NCBI GenBank assembly: GCA_964016885.1
Contig: OZ024740.1
Coordinates: 194,804,001 to 194,868,000, forward strand
DNA: 64,000 nucleotides
Source of the DNA: Eledone cirrhosa
Taxonomy: Eukaryota
Direction of reading: 5' to 3'
Under the pieces are notes generated by a model. The model did no database searches and was not told where the DNA came from. It saw only the letters and a list, made by a program, of their open reading frames with translations. Of the stretch, positions 11,922 through 64,000 are shown in pieces. Both the position numbers and the translations under genes were made by a program. Each line of letters opens with the position of its first letter. Position 1 is the stretch's first letter.

Positions 11922-11942
11922 TATATGTATATATATATATAT

Positions 11943-12535
11943 ATTTATTAAAATAACAGATTAAATTTTAAGCAAAGAGCGTGAAACTAATAAACCTTTG
12001 TTCGTACTGCCTCTCTGTTTTGTTCCCGTTCAATTTTTCACTATACATATATATATATATTTATTAAAATAACAGATTAAAGTTTAAGCAAAGAATCACA
12101 GCGATTCTTTGTTAAACTTTAATCTGTTATTTATTTTATCTACCCCATAAGGATGAAAGGCAAAGTTAACCACGGTGGTATTTGAACTCAGATCGTAACT
12201 ACGATGGAAAGCATGTCAGACCCTCTACCAATACTGCCAATTCACCGCCCATAATATATATCAAATATATATCAAATATATAAGAACTGTAGAGCAAATA
12301 TTTATTAAAATAACAGATTAAAGTTTAAGCAAAGAATCGCTGCGATTCTTTTCTTAAACTTTAATCTGTTATTTTAATAAATATTTACTCTACAGTTCTT
12401 ATATATTTGATATATATTTATCCTTCTTATTATAGTTCTTATATATTATTACAGTTCTTATATATTTGATATATATTTATCCCTCTTTGGATTTTTGTCT
12501 TCAAATTTTATTATTTTTACTATATATATATATAT
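11943..12535. mobile_element. Cluster of fold-back copies of a TA-targeting element (TTATTAAAATAACAGATTAAAGTTTAAGCAAAGAATCGC family)
   Basis: Half copy at ~11943, hairpin ~12062-12131, hairpin ~12265-12420 centred on GAATCGC-T-GCGATTC, then 3' tail to ~12530. Confidence 0.75.
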
Positions 12536-24650: not shown

Positions 24651-27600
24651 TCATTATCATCATCATTTAACATCTATCTTCCACGCTAGCATGGGTTTAG
24701 ACGGGAATTGCCCCACGTGAGGCAAGATTGGTTGTCTTGCTCGTATAGGACTGTGGGGACTGGGAGGTTTTTACCGTGTTACCTACACGGCCACATTACA
24801 GCGTGGACTGTGTGTTTTTTTGTCGTGAGACCTACACGACCTCATTTATTTAGGACTGGATGTTGTGGCACCAACATAACTTTACAGAGAAAGGGGTGGT
24901 GTAGATGGGGGTGGGGGTAGTGGTAGTGGGATGGAGGTGTATTTTTGGTTAGGAGGTGCCTACTGACTGTAGGTTTCGCTTTGTACTTAGGTAAGGCGGG
25001 TCTTCTGTATTACTGCGTAGCACCAAAGATCTCGGTCCCGTGACATTGTCTTAGAGAGGTGTAAGTGTGTAAGGTCGGAATTTATCAAATCGTCCCAGGC
25101 TTTTCTGGGTCTGCTTATTCCGTAGCTTCCATATATTTTGATCGCCCTGCACTTTTTTATACAGCTGTCGTCTTTCATGCGCATCACGTGACCATACCAA
25201 CGTAGTCTTCTCTCAAGTAAACAGCATCTGAGCCCTCTTATTCCTAATTTCTCACTTAGTTCATTTATGCTTTGCCATTCACGTATATTACTATTACACA
25301 TCCAACGGAGCATGCAAGCTTCATTCCTCTCCAGTCTGCGTAGATCCTCTGCACACAATGCCCATGTCTCACTGCCATGTAACATTGCTGTTTGTATGCA
25401 GGCATCATACAGTCTGCCTTTCATTTTTAGGGAGAACCATTTAGCAGTTAATAGTGGTATAAGCTCTCTGAACTTTTTCCATCCCGTTCTGACTCTAGCT
25501 ACTGTACTTTCAGGGCACCCTCCACCACTGCTGATTTTGTCACCCAGGTAACGGAAGGTGTCCACTATTTCTATAGAACGATCTGGGCAATGGAAGGAGC
25601 TAGTATCCTGTGGGCACTTGCTACTACTTATTGCACCTGAGCACCGGCCAAATATTAAATATATGTTCTTAGTTAGTTTACCTGTGATCCCACTACATCT
25701 TTTATGCACCTATACTTTGCATTTGGGACATATAATGGAGTTTCTGCCTACTCCTTTCCTACACACTGAGCATGGCCATTTCCCAGAGGGGACCAGTGCC
25801 CTATTTTCCTTCCTGCATACTAGAACTTTAGTCTTAAAGAAGTTAATTTTAAGGTCTTTTGATTCTAGGCCATGCTTCCAAGTTTGGAATTTCTTCTCTA
25901 GTTCAGCCATTGATTCAGCTATGAGCGTTAGATCATCTGCGTATAGAAGTTCCCATGGGCAGCCGGTCTTGAACTCCTCTGTTATAGCCTGAAGGGCAAT
26001 AATAAATAGGAGGGGGCTAAGGACAGAGCCCTGATGAACACCGACTTTTACGCTAAATTCTTCACTATATTCGTTGTTAATTCTAACCTTGCTGACTGTT
26101 TCTTTATACATGGCTTGTATAGCTCACACAAGCCATTCATCAACACCTAGTTTTCTAAGAGCCCACCAGATAATGGAGCAGGGGACTCTGTCAAAGGCTT
26201 TCTCCAAGTCAACAAAAGCTAAGTATAGGGGTTTACCTTTAGCTAGGAACTTCTCCTGTAGTTGTCGTACAAGGAAAAGAGCGTCTGTGGTACTTTTACC
26301 TGACACAAATCTAAACTGCATTTCATCTAGATCAATTCGCTCTCTGATTAGTTGCGCTATAACTTTTTCTGTGACCTTCATGACCTGGTCAATTAATTTA
26401 ATGCCTCTATAGTTTCCTCTATCTAGGGCATCTCCTTTACCCTTGTAGCAGTTAATGATGATACTGCTACGCCAGTCATTTTGTATGACCCCATTCTGTA
26501 TGACTTGGTTTACTATCCGGGAGACCATAGTGTGTCCCACCGATCCAGATGCTTTCAGCATTTCAGCAACTATCTCCGAAGGCCCAGCTGCTTTGCCTGT
26601 CTTCATATCTTTGATTGCCTTACTTATTATACTACCTTCAACTTGCACTGCTGGTCCCTCTATTGGATCGATTTGGGGCATCTTTTTCTCACTTATTCTC
26701 CTCATTTAGTAGCTTCTTATAGTGACACTTCCAAACTACCTTCTTATCAGTATCAGTGATGGCAAGTATACCATCATCATTACGGACACACTTCTCCCCG
26801 ACAATATCACGGTTTTCCTTGACACATTGTCTAGCAATCCTGAACACCTCACGTCTTTGGTCCTCGCGTTGTAGAACATGCCTGAACTTTCTTTCCTCTG
26901 CTTCCCTTCTTGCAAGGTACACTTGTCTCCTAGCTTCTCTCCTGGCCACTTGATAGTGTTCTCTACTTCCCCCATCCTGCCATACTTTCCAAGCTTGCTT
27001 TTTGGCCTTGATTGATTCCACCTTACTGTTCCACCACCAAGTTACTCTCCTCCTGCCTATAGGTCTGCTCCAGCCACAGACTTCTTCTGTCGCCTTCAGC
27101 AGGTTAACTTTCAGGAATTCCCACTGTTCCTCTATACTGTACATCTCTAATTGCTCTTCCTTACTGTCAAAAGCATCAAGTAGCATGCTTTTAAATTTGT
27201 TACGGGCTGTGGGGTTCTTTAACTTCCATATTCTTCTTCTCAGGGTGGTCCTCCTCCTGTTGTCGAGTTCGTTTCATCCTGATTATGAGGTCACTAACTA
27301 TGAGGCCATGTTGGGAGGTGCATTCTTTGCGGGGGAGGGATTTAGTGTTTACAACGGACACTTTGTCACGTCTTCTGGTAAGGATATAATCTATCTGACT
27401 GGCGTGTTCCCCTGATCCATAGGTGATCAAGTGATTGTCTCGTTTTTTGAAGTTTGTGTTGCAGATAGTTAGGTTATTTGCGTCACAGAATTCTGAAGCC
27501 TTCCTCATTTCTGGTACCAAACCCGTAGCCTCCATGGATTCCGTCATAGCCATCACAATGTTGTCCAACATGACCATTTAGGTCGCCAGCAATAATTATG

Positions 27601-27850
27601 TAGTCACTGTCAGTTAGTTGGGAGGTAGTGAGCATTAGCGACTCATAGAATCTGTCTTTTATAATGCCAGGCAGTCCAGATTGGGGTGCGTAAGCGGATA
27701 TTATTGTCACAGTAGTTCTATTTAGGACAAGTCTTATTTTGATTATTCTGTCATTGACTCTATTTACGTCAATTACCTTATCTACCCATTTTTCTGCTAA
27801 CATAATTCCTACTCCACCCAGCCCATTTTCATTTTCCACCCAGAAAAGTT
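24651..27850 (-). mobile_element. Near full-length RTE-clade LINE (APE endonuclease, RT, PHD-like finger), 5'-truncated and disrupted
   Basis: APE motifs (SAYAPQ, GDLNGHVG, QIDYIL), RT motifs (AFVDLEKAFDRV, GVHQGSVLSPLLF, LLYADD), C-terminal RRLRWYGHV..GRPRKTW, 3'UTR and (GAT)n tail; split by stops/frameshifts across ORFs 27932-24987. Confidence 0.95.
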
Positions 27851-28509
27851 TATATATATATATATACATACATATATACCATATATACATATATATATCA
27901 TCATCATTTAATGTCATTTTCCCTGCTAGCACTGGTTGGACAGGTCTTCACAGACTGAGCCTGTACTGAAGCAGACCTAAATGCTGTTACATCTGTCCTC
28001 CCCATACTTAATTTAACCTGTTCACATTGGTAGGCGAGTTTTCTAATGTAAACATACAGGTTGTGCTTATTTGTGGTAACAAGGACATTTATAAACTAAA
28101 TAAAGTACTTGCTACTTCATAAATTTGTTAATTTATTTAAGCTATAGTTTACAGGTTTATGAAACTATTTAAATAAACATTATTTCTTCAGAATTAATCA
28201 AGTTGGTAAAAGTAGATTTTTAAATTATGGTTTAAATAAATTGACACACACACCCATGTATTTTTGAAGATATCTTCTTTATAGCACAAGCAGATTAACC
28301 TAGTCATCTTAGTACAACTAATGATCCCAATCCAGGGTGATGAAAGAAAACCAGAATGAACTCTAGCAAGATTTTACAGTATTATTTACACCATCTACTT
28401 CTGACAGTGAAAGTATTAACTCTTTCATTATTAAGCAGTTGTTTGAAAACATAACTTAACAAAGTGAGAAAACTTTATTCCAAATACTACTGTCATAAAC
28501 AAAACGTAA

Positions 28510-34560: not shown

Positions 34561-34735
34561 TATAACTATATATACACTGGTTTAAGAAGAAGGGAGGTGT
34601 GATTTGGCAGAGTTATTAAAGCCTAACTGATATTTGTTCTAGCTTATATTGGTCTGAGTTCAAATTCTGCCAAGGTCAACTTTGCCTCTCATCCTTTTGA
34701 AGTTAATAAACCAAGTATCACTCTAGTGCTGGTGT

Positions 34736-34785
<50 letters not shown>

Positions 34786-34878
34786 CTGTCTCTCTTTCAC
34801 TCACTCTCTCACCAGCTCTGGTAAAAATCAGCTGTGTTCTAACCAGAGCTGGTGAGAGAGTGAGTGAAAGAGAGACAG

Positions 34879-34912
<34 letters not shown>

Positions 34913-35087
34913 ACACCAACACTAGATTGATACTTGGTTTATTAACTTCAAAAGGATGAGAGGTAAAGTTGACCTTGGCAGAATTTGAACTCAGACCAAT
35001 ATAAGCTAGAACAAATATCAGTTAGGCTTTAATAACTCTGCCAAATCACACCTCCCTTCTTCTTAAACCAGTGTATATATAGTTATA
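34561..35087. repeat. Fold-back inverted duplication (~250-bp arms, ~18-nt spacer) of an old SINE plus (CT)n tract
   Basis: Arms are reverse complements with about 3 substitutions and a different (CT)/(AG) length; spacer AAAAATCAGCTGTGTTCT. Confidence 0.95.
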
Positions 35088-44972: not shown

Positions 44973-45387
44973 TTCTACACATAGATGATGGCATAACTTG
45001 ATTTCAAGTAATGCCATTGCTTGATACTTAAGCATGAGCATCACAGACGTTATGTTTTAGTCCTGCTAGGGACTTGCCTAGGGTCAACAATGCCATGCAA
45101 AGTTGAACTGGTCTACATGATTGGATGCAAATGAAGTCGCAGGTTTTATATCAGAGTGACTTTCTCCAAGAGAGATGTCTTAATGAAGACTAGGAGTCTT
45201 ATGCTGCACAAAAAAAAAACCCCAAAACATTACTGTGTGTACAGGGTGAAGTATTCCTGCCACCAGCACTAGAGAGCTTGCCTTACTGGACACAAGAGTC
45301 TTCTCCACGCTGTCTTAGTTTTTATTTAGCGTATTTGCTTTCCTAGATGTGTTGCCTTTACTACAGCTTACGGAGCCCATGTCTACT

Positions 45388-45458
<71 letters not shown>

Positions 45459-45667
45459 CAACACATATTAAAAGTTTAAGCAAACAATTTAAGCATCATA
45501 TTGATACCCTGTGGTATGCAGACCAGTCTGATTACATTACAACTTGGAAAGTAAACTACAATGAGTGCTCAATCCTGTCTATACATTGGTTAGGTTGATC
45601 AATGAGTACAACTTGAAAACCAACAACGGATTAATGAACACAATATATAGAATATATATATAGAGAG

Positions 45668-46735
45668 ATTTTATATGTGGCCGGTGCTCAGGTGCAATAA
45701 GTAGCAGCAAGTGCCCACAGAATACTAGCTCACTCCATTGCACAGATGGTTCTATAGAAATAGTGGATACCTTCCGTTACCTGGGTGACAAAATCACCAG
45801 TGGTGGAGGGTGCTCTGAAAGTACGGTAGCTAGAATCAGAATGGGATGGAAAAAGTTCAGAGAGCTTATACCACTATTAGCCGCTAAAGGGTTCTCTCTG
45901 AAAATGAAAGGCAGGCTGTATGATGCCTGCATACGAACAGCAATGTTGCATGGCAGTGAGACCTGGGCATTGTGTGTAGAGGATATACACAGACTGGAGA
46001 GGAACAAAGCTTGCATGCTCCGCTGGATGTGTAATAGTAATATACGTGAACGGCAAAGCATAAATGAACTAAGGGAGAAATTAGGAATAAGAGGAATCAG
46101 ATGCTGTTTACTCGAGAGAAGGCTACGTTGGTATGGTCACGTGATGCGCATGAAAGACGACAGCTGTAAAAAAAAGTGCAGGGCGATAAAAATAGATGGT
46201 AGCCACGGAGTAGGCAGACCCAGAAAAACCTGGGACGACTTGATAAATTCCGACCTCACACACTTACACCTCTCCAAGACAATGTCACTGGACCGAGATC
46301 TTTGGCGCTACACAGTAATAGAGAAGACCCGCCTTACCTAAATACAAAGTAAAACCTACTACAGTCAGTAGGCACCTCTAACAAAATACACACCCGTCCC
46401 ACTACCCTCACCCCATCCACACCACCCCTTTCAATGTAAAGTTATGTTGGTACCACAACATCCACGCCAAAACAAATGAGGTCGTGTAGGTGTCACGACA
46501 AAAAAAACACACAATCCACGCTGAAATGTGGCCGTGTAGATAACACGGTAAAAACCTCCCAGTCCACACTGTAAACGTGGTTGGTGTTAGGAAGGGCATC
46601 CAGCTGTAGAAAACATGCCAGACAGTCCTATGCGAGCAAGACAACCAATCTTGCCTCAAGTGGGAAAATTACCGTCCAAACCCATGCAAGCGTGGAAAAT
46701 GGACGTTAAACGATGATGATGATGATGATGATGAT
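45668..46735 (+). mobile_element. 5'-truncated RTE LINE
   Basis: ORF 45763-46341 FRYLG..HGSETW..GRPRKTW; 3'UTR; (GAT)n tail. Confidence 0.93.
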
Positions 46736-48239: not shown

Positions 48240-49070
48240 ATCATCATCATCATCATCATCATCATCATCGTTTAACGTCCATATTCCATGCTTGCATGGG
48301 TTTGGACGGGAGTTTTCCCACTTGAGGCAAGAGTGGTTGTCTTGCTCGCATAGGACTGTCTGGCGGGTTTTCTACGGCTGGATGCCCTTCCTAACACCAA
48401 CTACATTTACAGTGTGGAACTGGGAGGTTTTTACCGTGTTACCTACACGGCCACATTTCAGCGTGGACTGTGTTTTTTTGTCGTGACACCTACACGACCT
48501 CATTTGTTTCGGCCTGGATGTTGTGGTACCAACATAACTTTACATTGAAAGGGGCGGTGTAGATGGGGTGAGGGTAGTGGGACGGGTGTGTATTTTGTTA
48601 GAGGTGCCTACTGACTGTAGTAGGTTTTACTTTGTATTTAGGTAAGGGGGGTCTTCTCTATTACTGTGTAGCGCCAAAGATCTCGGTCCAGTGACATTGT
48701 CTTGGAGAGGTGTAAGTGTGTGAGGTCGGAATTTATCTGGTCGTCCCAGGTTTTTCTGGGTCTGCCTACTCCGTGGCTACCGTCTATTTTTATTGCCCTG
48801 CACTTTGTTATACAGCTGTCGTCTTTCATGCGCATCACGTGACCATACCAACGTAGCCTTCTCTCGAGTAAACAACATCTGATCCCTCTTATTTCTAATT
48901 TTTCCCTTAGTTCGTTTATGCTTTGCCGTTCACGTATATTACTATTACACATCCAGCGGAGCATGCAAGCTTCGTTCCTCTCTAGTCTGCGTATATCCTC
49001 TGCACAAAATAACCCATGCTAGCGTGGAAGATGGATGTTAAACGAAGATGATGATGATGATGATGATGAT
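48240..49070 (-). mobile_element. 5'-truncated RTE LINE (-) fused to a second, inverted RTE 3' tail (+, 49011-49070)
   Basis: (CAT)n at left end, ORF 48638-48964, then AACCCATGCTAGCGTGGAAGATGGATGTTAAACG and (GAT)n at right end. Confidence 0.9.
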
Positions 49071-49084
49071 ATATATATATATAT

Positions 49085-49320
49085 ATTAAAATATCAGATT
49101 AAAGTTTAAGCAAAGTATCGCTGCTTTCACCCTTAACTGGATCTTCTGAAACTTGTTTTTTTTTAGTTTCAGAAGATCCCGTTAAGGGTGAAAGCAGCGA
49201 TTCTTTGCTTAAACTTTAATCTGTTATTTTGATAAATATATATATATATATATATATATTTATCCTTATCGAACCCTCTTTCGATTTTAATCTTCACATT
49301 TATTATTATTACTATATATA
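49085..49320. mobile_element. Fold-back copy of the same TA-targeting element
   Basis: ~70-bp arms around a T-rich loop (49085-49235), followed by the family tail TTTATCCTTATCGA..CCCTCTTT..ATTTT..TCTTCA; tail-only copy at 58215-58310. Confidence 0.8.
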
Positions 49321-49328
49321 TATATATT

Positions 49329-50462: not shown

Positions 50463-51138
50463 ATATATATATATATATATTGTAGGTGTCATGAACAAAA
50501 GCACCCAGCACACACTGTAAATGTGGTTGGCATTGGGAAAGGTATCCAGTCATAGAAAACCAGCCTCAAAACACCCAGCACACACTGTCAATGTGGTTGG
50601 GTTTAGGGACAGGCATCCAGCCATAGAAAACCAGCCAGAAACTCTCCTATATGAGCAAGACATGGTCACCTGACTCAACTTACCTCTAACTGGGACAAAC
50701 CCATCTAACCCATGCTAGTATAGAAGATAGAAGATAGACGTCAATCGATGATGATGATATATAGTTTCTCGCTATGAAATTTCCTCACAAAGCATTAGTC
50801 ATATGGAGGCTATAATAGAAATCACTTGCCCAAAGTGCAATGCATTGGCATATAAAACAAGACCACATAAATAAAAGTAAACTATTTAATCACTCAGTCG
50901 TATCTGCACCTACATATAGATGTATAATTTTGAACTTGGTGACCTATTTTCTTTGTTAATCTATGCTCCGTGATTGTAAATCTAAGATGAACATAAGTAT
51001 ACTAGCTGGATTTACCTCTGAAATACCCCTCGCTATTCTAGATATTGAATAAACCACATTTGAGCTTTAAATAAATATCTGAATGCCTTACTGTTGTTTT
51101 ATCAACTTATAGAATTGACTATATATATATATATATAC

Positions 51139-52717
51139 ATTATCTGGTGGGCTCTTAGAAAACTAGGTGTTGATGAATGGCTTGTGAGAGCTATAGCCAT
51201 GTATAAAGAAACAGTCAGCAAGGTTAGAATTAACAACGAATATAGTGAAGAGTTTAGCGTAAAAGTTGGTGTTCATCAGGGCTCTGTTCTTAGCCCCCTA
51301 CTATTTATGATTGCCCTTCAGGCTATAACAGTGGAGTTCAAGACCGGCTGCCCATGGGAACTCCTATACGCAGATGATCTAACGCTCATAGCTGAATCAA
51401 TGGCCGAGCTAGAGAAGAAATTCCAAACATGGAAGCACGGCCTAGAATCAAAAGGCCTTAAAATTAACCTGGCTAAGACTAAAGTTCTAGTTTGTAGGAA
51501 AGAAAATAAGGCGCCGGTCCCTTCTGGGAAATGGCCATGCACAGTGTGTAGGAAAGGCGTAGGTAGAAACTCCATTTTATGTCCCAAATGCAAAGTATGG
51601 GTGCATAAAAGATGTAGTCGGATCACAGGTAAGCTAACTAAGAACATAGATTTTACATGTGGCCGGTGCTCTGGTACAATAAGTAGCAGCAAGTGCCCAC
51701 AAAATACCAGCTCTTTCAATTGCGCAGAGGGTTCTATAGAAATAGTAGACAGCTTCTGTTACCTGGGTGAAAAAATCAGCAGTGGGGGAGGGTGCTCTGA
51801 AAGTACAGTAGCTAGAGTCAGAACTGGATGGAAAAAGTTCAGAGAGCTTATACCACTATTAGCCGCTAAAGGGTTCTGCCTAAAAATGAAAAGCAGGCTG
51901 TATGATGCCTGCATACGAACAGCAATGTTGCATGGCAGTGAGACCTGGGCATTGTGTGCAGAGGATATACGCAGACTAGAGAGGAACGAAGCTTGCATGC
52001 TCCGCTGGATGTGTAATAGTAATATACGTGAACGGCAAAGCATAAACGAACTAAGGGAAAAATTAGAAATAAGAGGGATCAGATGTTTACTCGAGAGAAG
52101 GCTACGTTGGTATGATCACGTGATGTGCATGAAAGACGACAGCTGTATAAAAAAGTGCAGGGCAATAAAGATAGACGGTAGCCACAGAGTAGGCAGACCC
52201 AGAAAAACCTGGGACGACCAGATAAATTCCGACCTCACACACTTACACCTCTCCAAGACAATGTCACTGGACCGAGATCTTTGGCGGTACTCAGTAGCAG
52301 AGAAGACCCGCCTTACCTAAATACAAAGTAAAACCTACTACAGTCAGTAGGCATCTCTAACAAAATACACCCCCGTCCCACCACCCCCACCCCATCCACA
52401 CCACCCCTTTCAATGTAAAGTTATGTTGGTGCCACAACATCCAGGCCGAAACAAATGAGATCGTGTAGGTGACACAACAAAAAAACACACAGTCCACGCT
52501 GTAATGTGGCCGTGTAGGCAACACGGTAAAAACCTCCCAGTCCCACACTGTAAATGTGGTTGGTGTTAGGAAGGGCATCCAGCTGTAGAAAACCCGCCAG
52601 ACAGTCCTATGCGAGCAAGACAACCACTCTTGCCTCAAGTGGGAAAACTCCCGTCCAAACCCATGCAAGCGTGGAACATGGACGTTAAACGATGATGATG
52701 ATGATGATGATGATGAT
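51139..52717 (+). mobile_element. Young 5'-truncated RTE LINE with open RT C-half
   Basis: ORF 51094-52320 open from IIWWALRKLG through YADD and the Cys/His finger to the native stop; full 3'UTR; (GAT)n tail; TA tracts at both ends. Confidence 0.95.
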
Positions 52718-56232: not shown

Positions 56233-58333
56233 CCATTTAAACATAATATGTTGGCTTATAAATGGGGTTTGGATTTTTTATCATTTCTCTGACATAAAAT
56301 AGGGACTCCACTTATATTCAAGTATATACTGTACTTCCCATCATCCTAAAATGGAAAGACATGCTTGGTAATGCAATCCTAGAAGTTTAAAGAAAATATG
56401 ACTATGACAGGAGTGTAATGATTGGAATGTCAGTTCAGCTGTATGTTTATAAAACATTATCGACAATACAGAACACTACTGAACAAAAATTATTTGAATA
56501 ACATTGTTTAATATACATGTTCATCTTGGTTTTAGAATACCATGTGTAACCTAGTTCTGGAAACCAATCCAATCTAAGACCTTCTCACACTTTTGGAGGA
56601 ACACTTCCCTGGTTGACGTTCACTGCATTCTGCTTGGGTTTGGTGATGTCAGGAGTGTAGCCATACTCACCACGCTTGGTTAATTGCTGGTTGGTGAGGC
56701 TATTTAACCCATAGTTGGGAAAAGGTATACAAAATACCTGTATGTTCTAAGAGTGACTAAAAAAGTTGGAAGAGCATCCAACAATAAATCACTGTCTCCA
56801 GAAGTCATGTCCAACCCATGCTAGCACAAAAAGAAGACTTAAAACTATGATGATAATGATGTTTATGACAATGATGACAACAATGATGATGATTCGTCTA
56901 AAAATGTTATCATTCAGTCTAGCTATTTATTTCCAACACCTAACAACCAATATTAAAATTCTTCAGCTATTATACATCTGTCAATTTCCTTTAACAACAT
57001 GAAACTGAACATATTAACATATGTTACCTAGCTATCAAGAATAGGTATCACATCAAATAGGAAGGATACATGTGACAGAGCACTAACCAATTCACAACAA
57101 ATACAAGTTCTCACCCCTCCAGACGTTCTTGGTATTCCAGAAGGCATTAGCATTTACATTACATTTTAATTGATAGAAAGCTTCTGGTGGTCACCCAATC
57201 AAACACTTTCGAATTTTGATTGGTACATTTACATTTTTACACCTATATCTTCTACTCCATATCCCACCACCACCACCCCCACCACTACTACTAATACCAT
57301 CACTACTATTACTACTACTACCACCACCACCAGCACTACTATTACTACTACTACTATTACTAATACAACTCCAACTACAAATGGAAAATAAATTTACAAA
57401 CCAAAGCAATAAAATGAATCCTGTTTTTTTTTCATGTTATTTTATTATATATTTGGAGGCTGAATACGTATGAAGAGCTAAAAGACAAAAGATAATTAAG
57501 TCAGAAGTTAATTCAAGTATGAGAAGAGAAAAAGATAAAATGAGGAAGGAAGGAGCTCATTGTAAAATAAAACAAATCAAAGCTCCACCAAAAAACGACA
57601 ATCTAACACTCTTAGGAAATAAACTATATTATGTAAATCAATGAATGAGGCAAGGGAAAAATGGAAGAAAATTTATGGGAAATAAATATTGATTAGAATT
57701 AAGTTTAGGTTCAGGGATTAGTGTTAGGGTTGGGGTTTGGGTTAGGTTTAAGTTTTGAATTACACATTCTAGAGCTCATGAATTTATAGCAGGGAGAAAG
57801 TTAATAATAAGAAGAAAAAGGATAGCCTGAATTCAATTTTCTTAGCTTCATTTATAGTTTCAGTACATTAACTAACAAGAGTATACGAACATAGTGACAA
57901 ACGAATACCATGCATACATGTACATAGCTATAAATATATATATATATATGTATATAGGGCTGTGAATAGAGTTATTACAGTATAAGATTAAATGCCATGC
58001 CGTATTTATTCCTGCTCTTTGCATTCTGCTTTCAAATTCTACTGAGATCAACATTGCCTTTCATCTGTTTGGGGTTTAATAAATAAAGTACTAGCCTGAG
58101 ATATTGAATTAGCAGAATTGTGATTATATATACACAGTCACACATACACATATATATATATATGTAAGTATGCATACGTACATACATACACACATGCACA
58201 TATATATATATATATTTATTTGCTCTACGGTTCTTATATATTTGATATATATTTATCCTTATCGAGCCCTCTTTGGATTTTAGTCTTCAAATTTATTATT
58301 ATTACTATATATATATATATATATATACTCACA

Positions 58334-59796: not shown

Positions 59797-59810
59797 TATT
59801 ATATATATAT

Positions 59811-60329
59811 AAAAGAAATGAGATTTCGCTTCAAGCATAGCTTTATACAAATATGTAGAGAAATTTTGTATTTCTAAAGAAACACGGTTTTAGGAAGCCA
59901 TAGCTATGCAAACACCGGGGCTAACGCCCTCTGGTGGTGTCCAGCAGAGGCAAGGGGGACAACTGTCTATGCATTTCAGGCTTGACTGGCCTTCATCAGG
60001 ATGGTCCCTCCCAATGCTTGCACTTGCTGGACTTGAAAACAGTCGAGAATATATAGTTTTCTCATCTGTGTAAATGAGGTGATTAATCTCATTTGCATAT
60101 GAAGCTGCATAAGTTGGCCAGCCCCAATGTTTGCATAGCTACGGCTTCCTAAAACCGTGTCTCTTTAGAAGTACGAAATTTCTATACATATTTGTATAAA
60201 GCCATGCTTGAGGTGAAATCTTATTCCTTTTCTATTATAAGTTGAGCCAACTTATGCAGCTTAGTATGCAAATGAGATTAATCACCTCATTTACACAGAC
60301 GATATATTCTTGACTGTTTTCAAGTCCAG
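59811..60329. mobile_element. Interleaved inverted-repeat element A-B-A'-B' carrying a hammerhead
   Basis: A 59811-59922 pairs with A' 60120-60231; B 60027-60118 pairs with B' 60246-60329; starts at a TA tract and is fused to an RTE fragment on the right. Confidence 0.75.
59955..60009 (-). ncRNA. Type I hammerhead ribozyme motif, partly decayed
   Basis: GGGACCAUC-CUGAUGA-AGGC-cagucaa-GCCU-GAAA-UGCA-UA/-GACAGUUGUCCC. The two stem I mismatches are each explained by CG>CA decay of an ACCGUC/GACGGU helix. Confidence 0.68.
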
Positions 60330-60331
60330 GG

Positions 60332-60784
60332 TTATACGATGCCTGTATGAGATGCACGATACTGCATGGTAGTGAGACATGGGCAGCAACTGCAGATGAT
60401 ATGCGAGAAATGAAGCAAGCATGCTCCGTTGGATGTGCAATGTCAATGTGCGTGAACGACCAAGCATAGATGTGTTGAGAGAGAAACTGGGTATAAGAGG
60501 GATAAGCTGTGGTGTGCAGGAGGAAAGACTGAGATGGTATAGACATGTGATGCGCATGGAGGATGACCTCTGAGTAAAGAAGTGCCAAGAAATCCCAGTA
60601 GAAGGAAGACACAGTAGAGGAAGACCACCAAAAACATGGGCGGGGTGGGGAGAGCAGACCTCAGATCGCTGAAACTCAGGGAGGAGATGACGAAGGACCG
60701 TGACAAGTAGAGAGATGCTGTGCTGAATAAGACCCATCCCATCCTTGCAAGCAGGGAAAAGAGGGAGTAAAATGATGATGATGA
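60332..60784 (+). mobile_element. RTE LINE 3' fragment (divergent subfamily, short 3'UTR)
   Basis: LYDAC..LHGSETW..RLRWY..GRPPKTW homology with frameshifts; tail CTTGCAAGCAGGGAAAAG..(GAT)n. Confidence 0.85.
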
Positions 60785-60893
60785 TATATATATATATATA
60801 TATATACGCATTTCAAAAACAAATATCATCATATCATTATATATATATATATATGCATACATATATATATATGCATACATATATATATATATA

Positions 60894-60954
<61 letters not shown>

Positions 60955-60970
60955 TTACATATATATATAT

Positions 60971-61015
<45 letters not shown>

Positions 61016-61112
61016 CATATATATATATATATGCATACATATATATATATACTTACATATATATATATATATATATACATACATACATATATATATATAT
61101 ACATATATATAT
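60785..61112. repeat. Compound (TA)n microsatellite with higher-order units
   Basis: Direct reading; similar tracts at 5040-5330, 22345-22412, 22895-22950, 33120-33255, 45390-45455 and 63047-63381. Confidence 0.95.
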
Positions 61113-61329
61113 ATTACCCACTCTACTACCCTAAGTATTGAGTACTCTGGTTCGTTATGGTCCATCTGGTTCCTTACCACAATTCCTTTGTTATATATAT
61201 ATATATGGTGGCTGCCAACTTATTTTCGAGTACAGCCACTACTCTATATCCATGTAGGAGAACCCCTACCGATGCGCTGAACGAGTGTGACATTTTAGTC
61301 CAGCCAGTGACTTGAAAACTATGGTACAA

Positions 61330-61812
61330 ACACAACACTTGTGACAATTATTGACACAAAGTGCTGGGTCCATGGTACCATGTGACGACAAGTGCAGAGA
61401 GATCTCCAGATATAAAGCAATGCCTGTGCCGTGAAGCTTTTATAGTGAGCAAAGGCACTGCACAAAGCCAGTCCCACTCTCTTAACCAAGATGATATTTA
61501 CCAAAAAGAAGAACAAGTCAACATCATTGGATACCATCAGAGTTGCAGGTGTTATATCAGAGTTTTCCTTCTCCTAGAATTCTGCCTTGACAAAGGCTAA
61601 GGGGTCATCTCTCCCGGTGATTTTGGATGGCCATTGACTCTTAAGAGCTCCTTTGCCCTTTGACAGGTTTTGTTTTTAGTCCTGCAGGATGTCCAAAGTC
61701 ACCCTCCTCACCAAGAAATCTTGGTGGGGTTGCCAGTTTAGTCGCCAACAACCCGACCATGAGACAGGTTGTACTGGGATACATGTTACCAGTAGCACCA
61801 ACTGGTGACCTG
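61330..61812 (-). mobile_element. Non-coding RTE 5'UTR-like element
   Basis: Contains CTAGGAGAAGGAAAACTCTGA and GGCGACTAAA motifs recalled from RTE 5'UTRs; starts at a TA tract. Confidence 0.45.
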
Positions 61813-61817
61813 ACATA

Positions 61818-61884
<67 letters not shown>

Positions 61885-62094
61885 GATAACAAGTTATCGT
61901 CATAGGTAATCCAGTTAGAGGTTGTGAGTACTCTGCGTCATGGATAGTTTTAACATACGGCTTTGTTTGACTCAACAAAATGCTTCCATCGTTATGCAGC
62001 GAGTTTGCAGTAATTTCTATGCAGGTTATACTTGGAGTAATAATAGTTAAAGTTATCTTTAACTATATATATATTTATAGATATATATAAATAC

Positions 62095-63046
62095 ATCATC
62101 ATCATCATCATCATCAACGTTTAACGTCCGTGTTCCATGCTTGCATGGGTTTGGACGGGGGTAGTCCCACTTGAGGCAAGAGTGATTGTCTTGCTCGCAT
62201 AGGACTGTCTGGCAGGTTTTCTACAGTTGGATGCCCTTCCTAACACCAACCACATTTACAGTGTGGGTCTGGGAGGTTTTTACCGTGTTGCCTACACGGC
62301 CACATTACAGCGTGGACTGTGTGTTTTTTTGTCGTGACACCTACACGATCTCATTTGTTTCGGCCTCGATGGCGCGGCACCAACATAACTTTACATAGAA
62401 CGGGGTGGTGTGGATCGGGTGGGGGTGGTGGTGGTGGGACGGGGTGTATTTTGTTAGAGATGCCTACTGGCTGGAGTAGGTTTTACTATATATTTAGGTA
62501 AGGCGGGTCTTCTCTGTTACTGAGTACCGCCAAAGGTCTCGGTCCAGTGACATTGTCTTGGAGAGGTGTAAGTGTGTGATGTCGGAGTTTATCAGCTCGT
62601 CCCAGGTTTTTCTAGGTCTGCCTATTCCGTGACTACCATCTATCTTTATTGCCCTGCACTTTGTTATACAGCTATCGACTTTCATGCGCATCACGTGTCC
62701 ATACCAACGTAGCCTTCTCTCGAGTAAACAACATCTGATCCCTCTTATCTCTAATTTTTTTCCTTAGTTCGTTTATGCTTTGCCGTTCACGTATATTACT
62801 GTTACACATCCAGCGGAGCATGCAAGCTTCGTTTCTCTCTAGTCTGCGTATATCCTCTGCACACAATGCCCAGGTCTCACTGCCATGCAGCATTGCTGTT
62901 CGTATGCAGGCATCGTACAACCTGCCTTTCATTTTTAGTGAGAACCCTTTAGCAGCTAATAGTGGTATAAGCTCTCTGAACTTTTTCCAACCAGTTCTGA
63001 CTCTAGCTACAGTACTTTCAGAGCACCCTCCCCCACTGCTGATTTT
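62095..63046 (-). mobile_element. 5'-truncated RTE LINE
   Basis: ORFs 62672-62932 and 62494-62694, 3'UTR, (GAT)n tail. Confidence 0.93.
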
Positions 63047-63216
63047 ACATATATATATATACTTAGATACATACGTATATATATACTTAGATCATATGTA
63101 TATATATATATATATATATACTTAGATACATATGTATATATATATCTATATACTTATATATATATATATACTTAGATACATATGTATATATATATATATA
63201 TATACTTAGATCATAC

Positions 63217-63264
<48 letters not shown>

Positions 63265-63304
63265 GTATGATCTAAGTATATATATATATATAAGTATATA
63301 TATG

Positions 63305-63368
<64 letters not shown>

Positions 63369-63419
63369 CATATATATACATATAATATAAGATCAAAAGA
63401 TGGTTAAAGGAGTTCCATA

Positions 63420-63490
63420 TATTTTATTATGCGCATTTCAAAAACAAACATCATCAAACAATAATATTTGCGTTTTCATCAGATAAAACA
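63420..63490 (-). ncRNA. Type I hammerhead ribozyme motif (left arm of palindrome)
   Basis: Exact reverse complement of 63695-63765. Confidence 0.8.
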
Positions 63491-63694
63491 GGAGAACATG
63501 ATATGAAGGCTAAAAAACACTTGTTGATAGTGCAGTTTTAAATCAACATATGAAAAGTGGTTTTAGATTGATGTGTGATATTGGGAAAAATATATTTTTC
63601 CCAATATCACACATCAATCTAAAACCACTTTTCATATGTTGATTTAAAACTGCACTATCAACAAGTGTTTTTTAGCCTTCATATCATGTTCTCC

Positions 63695-63765
63695 TGTTTT
63701 ATCTGATGAAAACGCAAATATTATTGTTTGATGATGTTTGTTTTTGAAATGCGCATAATAAAATA
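63695..63765 (+). ncRNA. Type I hammerhead ribozyme motif (right arm of palindrome)
   Basis: UGUUUUAU-CUGAUGA-[~16-bp stem II with G.U pairs and one mismatch, GUUU loop]-GAAA-UGCGCA-UA/-AUAAAAUA: 8-bp stem I, palindromic stem III (AUGCGCAU), AUA cleavage triplet. Confidence 0.8.
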
Positions 63766-63918
63766 TATGGAACTCCTTTAACCATCTTTTGATCTTATAT
63801 TATGCATACTCCAGTCCCACAAACTGTAGAGTGCTTCTTATCCGATATCTGCATTGCTTTATTGTACTACAATAAAACTCACCTCCTACATATATATACA
63901 TATATATATATATATATA

Positions 63919-64000
63919 GCTAAAAGTAAGCCACTCTACTTGGCATTTGTCAACCTTGAGAAAGCCTTTGACAGAGTTCCACGTGCTGTAATCTGGTGGG
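63919..64000 (+). mobile_element. Start of another 5'-truncated RTE LINE (runs off window)
   Basis: AKSKPLYLAFVNLEKAFDRVPRAVIWW immediately after a TA tract. Confidence 0.88.

Follow-up and report, generated by a model that had tools for sequence, protein, structure and literature searches.

How does a long palindrome with a hammerhead ribozyme motif on each strand come to lie in a TA microsatellite, and does its symmetry matter to the ribozyme? The first-pass annotation of this locus had described a loop-less 422-bp palindrome of two identical 211-bp arms, and this description holds: within the 64-kb stretch of DNA analysed here (the window), positions 63382-63803 form a perfect palindrome with arms at 63382-63592 and 63593-63803 (211 nt each, 100% complementary, zero spacer), which is the only non-TA member among the 265 perfect palindromes of the window with arms of at least 12 nt. 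The neighbouring TA tract was also noted correctly, and TA tracts in fact bracket the whole element on both sides. The whole element is larger than first noted, comprising in addition an 18-bp direct repeat that flanks the whole and a one-sided extension (63804-63889, hereafter the tail), at the end of which lie a small hairpin and an AC-rich stretch (Table 1). We consider it probable that two identical truncated repeat ends were joined head-to-head in the TA microsatellite, likely when a Penelope-like reverse transcriptase/endonuclease made a single recent insertion.

The interrupted 18-mer of 63367-63384 occurs twice in the window, both times at an edge of the element (the other copy being 63887-63904). 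Any 18-mer is shared by 308 of 1482 pairs of TA-tract edges, one with at least 2 C/G by only 3 of 1482, this pair among them, and 2 of 1481 mock pairs of TA-tract edges matched as well as this pair. The insert (~63385-63886) thus sits inside a candidate target-site duplication of 12-18 bp, which is of low complexity. Just left of the element, an interrupted-TA motif at 63058-63280 comprises five direct repeats and one inverted repeat (63203-63219 versus 63262-63278).

Table 1. Features of the insert and related repeats, in window coordinates
Feature	Position	Strand	Basis or remark
Left copy of 18-bp direct repeat, candidate target-site duplication	63367..63384	+	In TA tract; 3-nt overlap with arm
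Left arm, inverted 5'-truncated copy stopping at the family's short 3' end	63382..63592	-	Palindrome search; TA-joined ends in public runs
Type I hammerhead core, minus copy	63428..63482	-	Descriptor scans
Head-to-head junction, centre 63592/63593	63583..63602	.	Self-complementary AT within A/T-rich stretch
Right arm, direct 5'-truncated copy, pseudo-LTR-like, 211 nt	63593..63803	+	Palindrome search and public runs
Type I hammerhead, plus copy	63695..63765	+	Descriptor scans, folding, family variants
Optional 3' extension (tail), 83-86 nt, right side only	63804..63889	+	Family records run through, then TA
Right copy of 18-bp direct repeat	63887..63904	+	Exact-repeat search of window
25-nt scrap of hammerhead family, 3' half of stem II to mid helix III	60807..60831	-	24/25 identical
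Second-family fold-backs	12067-12132, 12263-12419, 49069-49249		Arms 88-97% identical, TA-side

Anatomy of the hammerhead motif

Each arm contains one complete type I core, at 63703-63757 on the plus strand and mirrored at 63482-63428 on the minus strand; the complete type I hammerhead per strand that had been claimed was thereby recovered by descriptor scans with its core, three stems and palindromic helix III. In the plus copy, an 8-bp stem I (63695-63702/63758-63765) encloses the catalytic core at 63703-63709 and 63746-63749 (CUGAUGA from 63703, GAAA from 63746), a stem II of 15 bp with one mismatch (63710-63745), the palindromic helix III (63749-63756, AUGCGCAU) and an AUA site whose last base is 63757, after which cleavage is predicted. 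All invariant type I core residues are present (C3 U4 G5 A6 N7 G8 A9, G12 A13 A14, A15.1-U16.1, H17), and the three helices follow the type I order, with a helix III of 2 bp in the monomer or of 8 bp between molecules (predicted at -10.5 kcal/mol). The pair closing stem II is A-U in this copy, whereas the consensus has G-C. The hammerhead lies 46 nt from the family's short 3' end, i.e., within the pseudo-LTR-like arm.

Our hammerhead descriptor matched the window twice, in the two palindrome arms. Across approximate dinucleotide shuffles, a relaxed descriptor found a match in 14 of 100 (mean 0.19), and one requiring a palindromic helix III in 0 of 100. An Rfam search, which the first-pass annotation had proposed as a check, recognised no hammerhead family here, neither at gathering score (0 matches) nor among the 59 + 16 weak rows. 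Rfam rows of miRNA families, all of them under gathering score, were set aside as reflecting merely a long hairpin. The fold energy of 63690-63775 is ordinary (z -1.57, equalled by 14 of 200 shuffles). The family fragment reported earlier at ~60805-60835 was confirmed; this scrap lies between TA tracts, and its single difference is a common family allele at 63736. Viral contigs gave 0 matches to the hammerhead pattern, and 9 loci in metagenome contigs, whose flanks resemble the arm in nothing beyond the motif, were treated as chance.

A second, unrelated hammerhead-like motif is located at 59950-60016 on the minus strand, with CUGAUGA at 59999, a 4-bp stem II, GAAA, a palindromic AUGCAU and a 2-bp stem I with a 5-bp extension. 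Our descriptor, which demands 4 contiguous stem I pairs, overlooked it, and it scores 13.1 bits (E 2.2) against Rfam Hammerhead_3, which is below cut-off. It sits between inverted arms of 88% identity (59802-59922/60120-60239) adjoining a TA tract, and the element at 59802-60239 is possibly another Penelope-like insert.

The repeat family in public sequencing runs

The stretch or part of it is present in 17 of the 21 public runs listed, none of these 17 being on record as RNA, which carries no information on expression. Four were compared over 63570-63900, namely contigs (X1 and X7) and raw RAD-seq reads (X19) from organism A and contigs from organism B (X4), which yielded 4575 (X1), 403 (X7), 5119 (X19) and 31 (X4) records. 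The palindrome arm is one end of a high-copy, hammerhead-bearing repeat family. Among the loose ends listed, the short 3' end at 63803 is joined to TA in 18 contigs of X1, 4 of X7 and 295 reads of X19, and the long 3' end at 63889-63898 in 54 contigs of X1, 3 of X7, 1224+351 reads of X19 and 2 contigs of X4; in the insert, the left arm stops at the first of these family ends (63803) and the right side at the second (~63889). A subfamily diverging at 63790 contributes 55 (X1), 2 (X7), 210 (X19) and 1 (X4) of the listed ends. Other copies extend before 63592 into unrelated pyrimidine-rich sequence (13 contigs of X1, 1 of X7 and 1 of X4 among the listed ends), and since they continue past the centre 63592/63593, this marks a 5' truncation point and not the natural start of the family. 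Both arms carry the same minor alleles, including the rare 63714 G (~1.5% of X1 depth), and therefore derive from one template.

The rows of variants listed include 15 within the hammerhead (63695-63765), 5 of them in loop II. In the same rows, N7 alone varies among the 13 core positions, 7 of 8 stem changes preserve pairing, and variation affects 5 of 5 G-U pairs, all towards Watson-Crick alleles, versus 3 of 18 Watson-Crick pairs (Fisher p 0.0017). It is the concentration at G-U pairs that constitutes the signal, because transitions at such pairs always preserve pairing. Judging from these alleles, variation within the family leaves the catalytic core untouched except at N7 and tends to maintain the stems, and the hammerhead is a conserved family feature. 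The eighth stem change, 63745 C, shares its distance to the record end with a loose end (63738) whose sequence has G at position 10.1, and this shared distance suggests that 63745 C travels with the G-at-10.1 subfamily as a compensatory change from A-U to G-C.

Among the 15 rows, a change at 63751 (G>T), which breaks the helix III palindrome, coincides with a heap of read ends at 63748 in X19, and together these likely represent a restriction-site effect. At 63772, A>G reaches ~14% of depth in X7, whereas in the other runs it is found at ~0.01% (X1), in 2 of 2586 reads (X19) or not at all (X4); this would fit editing if X7 were RNA, and X7 is another sample. A literature search, with Repbase and Dfam outside its scope, found no description of this repeat family, and the hammerhead motif was absent from the searched supplements of PMC8557442 and PMC4209133 (for the latter, all but one file).

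Predicted RNA folding and coding content

The antisense-first order on either strand and the resulting self-sequestering duplex, both claimed by the first-pass annotation, are reproduced as a prediction: read-through RNA of the palindrome would fold into a 209-pair hairpin (-340.5 kcal/mol) in which stems I and II have probability 0. The role given to the palindrome in silencing was not supported. By prediction, leaving out the antisense arm would not switch the ribozyme on, since helix III has 2 bp in the monomer and, in RNA beginning at the centre, stem II is predicted with a probability of 0.86 and stem I with at most 0.09; the palindrome would therefore be unnecessary for silencing, and the lone ribozyme is likely off regardless of it. 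Once the RNA passes the short end, a predicted 8-bp helix between 63753-63760 and 63798-63805 would cover the cleavage site (probability 0.86-0.96). The tail was also considered as a specific switch, an idea that was rejected because shuffled tails drive stem I below 0.05 in 119 of 200 cases as well. Single min-HHR motifs showed no cleavage in the experiments available to us from PMC4209133, and the hammerhead described in PMC11167929 requires protein for cleavage and can be dispensed with in vitro. The hammerhead of the present family would depend on protein assistance or on a partner for dimerisation and is in this copy likely inert cargo, and the hairpin RNA would arise only through read-through from outside transcription.

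The Pfam search covered 150 of the 185 window segments of at least 55 aa, a length below which shorter exons would escape. Among these segments, neither a GIY-YIG domain nor a host exon or gene was recognised, and the host-intron setting proposed earlier was accordingly not recovered. RVT_1 matches were obtained in 3 window segments, one of which also had PHD-like matches, and three further weak matches in the window fell below cut-off. We take the RVT_1 segments to be pieces of RTE-type LINEs. Many broken LINE reverse-transcriptase pieces are scattered over the window (24987-27947, 45664-46341, 51064-52320, 62500-63045 and 63920-64000). No reverse transcriptase or GIY-YIG gene adjoining the element was found in the insert or in the window segments searched, and in this copy no frame is open from the hammerhead through the tail. 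A coding role of the tail was discarded, since most of the listed variants in its single open frame change codon positions 1-2.

Origin of the insert

The layout closely resembles that of EN+ Penelope-like elements (Penelope/Poseidon, Neptune, Hydra), as far as it is described in the portions of the papers available to us. As in PMC3846280 and PMC8557442, an inverted, 5'-truncated copy is joined head-to-head through a palindromic junction; PMC3846280 offers a self-priming model for such junctions and reports pLTRs of 193-218 bp in Adineta elements, the size range of the 211-nt arms. Shared with PMC8557442 and PMC11167929 are the optional tail at one end with its two 3' ends (63803 and 63889-63898), the short target duplication (here a candidate) and the AT-rich or microsatellite target: PMC8557442 places the inverted copy at the element's 5' end and mentions a tail of 30-40 bp, often at one end, and a microsatellite bias, while PMC11167929 describes AT-rich targets, priming of both strands and a tail whose limits are set by two reverse-transcription start sites. 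A type I hammerhead near the 3' end, here inside the pseudo-LTR, is likewise known from PMC11167929. In contrast to these published cases, the tail of this family measures 83-86 nt instead of 30-40, both arms are truncated at the same base, so that the palindrome is perfect over its full length instead of over 18-38 bp, and no ORF was found inside the insert or linked to it in the window. An ORF start inside the pLTR or tail, which is seen in anole and rotifer elements and not known to be universal, is missing from this copy. The Penelope-like reading is thus supported by the head-to-head arms, the tail, the two ends and the hammerhead; no RT/GIY-YIG gene was found beside the element. The element works like a Penelope-like insertion, and strict membership is unproven as the RT/GIY-YIG gene is unlinked.

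We envisage that a Penelope-type endonuclease would nick the TA tract and that cDNA would be primed from the outer of two start sites, which corresponds to the end of the tail. Synthesis would halt after ~300 nt at the A/T-rich centre, fold back and copy itself, and the second strand would be resolved at the inner start site, 63803. Resolution at this site would thus leave the tail on one side only, together with a short target duplication.

Further inverted structures occur in the same window. A second TA-anchored family at 11925-12535, 45385-45495, 49066-49325 and 58205-58325 includes the three fold-backs listed in Table 1, with arms of ~33, 78 and 90 nt and a one-sided extension; their centres lie at different points, two have the longer extension on the right, and no hammerhead was seen in the short copies of this family in the window. 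At 34561-35087, a 527-bp near-palindrome with a short spacer has arms holding a dispersed repeat and a CT microsatellite of differing lengths, and represents mixed DNA, not a single element, that was duplicated in inverted orientation. Finally, a 187-bp island between two TA tracts (61884-62070), with no second copy in the window, is possibly another TA-targeting insert.

Two rival readings concern the palindrome itself. It seems to us improbable that the junction is an artefact, produced by a fold-back read or by polishing that equalised two similar arms and deleted a spacer, even though the arms are 100% identical without a spacer, an inverted interrupted-TA motif lies just to the left (63203-63219/63262-63278), and no record covers 63570-63581 in 4 of 4 runs, leaving the junction without independent read support. 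The zero depth is a weak test, however, as three of the runs consist of contigs, which lose rare or dead-end paths, and X19 is reduced-representation data from another sample; contig assembly removes dead-end paths by tip clipping. Moreover, a fold-back read would mirror the tail and the flank as well, whereas the symmetry ends exactly at the natural family end, and the direct 18-mer on both sides fits a real insertion. The diverged fold-backs of the second family in the same window also argue for biology over artefact, as does the probable head-to-head joint in raw reads discussed below (63634 to 63860). Far less credible is a host-retained intron hairpin that keeps its own ribozyme silent and supplies substrate to ADAR or Dicer. 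Its appeal lies in the predicted duplex, which abolishes both hammerhead stems, and in the siRNAs matching Penelope inverted repeats in flies (described in the available part of PMC3681739), but no host gene was recognised in the window, the identical arms indicate a very young insert rather than a retained one, and the folding predictions leave the ribozyme inactive with or without the duplex. A broader scenario, which we regard as speculative and hardly probable, would be an ORF-less hammerhead family, derived from Penelope and very high in copy number, that has an unusually long tail and would routinely insert as perfect hairpins, with a switch at the tail border and fold-back dsRNA that would be edited or diced and so restrain the whole family.

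Two other alternatives retain a Penelope-type enzyme. In a twin-priming scheme, which we hold to be possible though doubtful, an enzyme dimer would prime from both target nicks, one per start site, and the two cDNAs would join via the central AT. Cutting of both strands, and their extension from two start sites, is known from in vitro work (PMC11167929), and the scheme directly accounts for the one-sided tail and the exact centre: plain fold-back of the parental sequence misses this centre unless a small slip is allowed, whereas twin priming joined at the 2-nt AT gives it. An asymmetric opposite-strand joint, 63634 to 63860, is also present in raw reads (98 reads, one start), and depth steps indicate that it is head-to-head; a further joint, 63648 to 63796, is ambiguous in direction and was left out of the evidence. 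On the other hand, twin priming requires two cDNAs halting at the same base, and the near-symmetric fold-backs of the second family at different truncation points fit fold-back better. We think it rather unlikely that the insert is a non-autonomous hammerhead element, retrozyme-like or SINE-like, which has no coding master and moved in trans. While no frame is open through arm and tail, thousands of short dispersed records occur in public runs, and animal retrozymes have been argued to derive from pLTRs (bioRxiv 10.64898/2026.07.22.740005, as far as available), there is no tandem unit in 60000-64000 and no end-to-start joint among the joints listed, and the listed 3' loose ends (63803 as well as 63889-63898) continue as TA. 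The tail and the head-to-head joints are, furthermore, Penelope-type marks, so that the mobilising enzyme would still be Penelope-like.

The Penelope-like insertion that we favour can also be set beside other hammerhead elements. PLE minimal hammerheads (Cervera and De la Pena 2014, PMC4209133) share the CUGANGA/GAAA core, a long helix II, a small palindromic helix III suited to dimers and U-rich 5' and AU-rich 3' flanks, and the opposite-strand pair found here, 220 bp apart, falls within the 100-700 bp published for min-HHR pairs. In the material available from that paper, however, helix II has 7-8 bp versus 15 here, helix I 4-5 bp versus 8, and the stem II closing pair is G10.1-C11.1 versus A-U in this copy. 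Non-LTR retrozymes of animals (PMC7229834, partially available) are likewise non-coding and low in GC, with a type I hammerhead in a unit of a few hundred bases; retrozymes are defined by tandem units (PMC7229834; bioRxiv 10.64898/2026.07.22.740005), and no direct tandem hammerhead units, the mark of retrozymes, were found in 60000-64000. Unlike them, the present arms are inverted. Naiad PLEs resemble the insert in their (TA)n target, tandem or inverted structure and tail, but are described in the accessible part of PMC8557442 as lacking canonical hammerheads, whereas this family has a complete one.

The layout is thus already published in its parts, as opposite-strand min-HHR pairs (PMC4209133), head-to-head pLTRs (PMC3846280) and inverted-repeat siRNAs (PMC3681739), to the extent that these sources were available, and the differences from the published cases are the long tail, the long stems and the full symmetry. 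The case also warns against taking every perfect palindrome of this kind in a TA-rich animal assembly for an artefact. A genome-wide count of junctions would separate self-priming from twin priming, an open question of Penelope integration (PMC3846280 and PMC8557442, in the parts available). As it stands, the insert is a further example of a known insertion plan, its family being uncatalogued, and its value lies in providing a clean snapshot, with identical arms, two natural ends and a candidate target duplication within ~520 bases.
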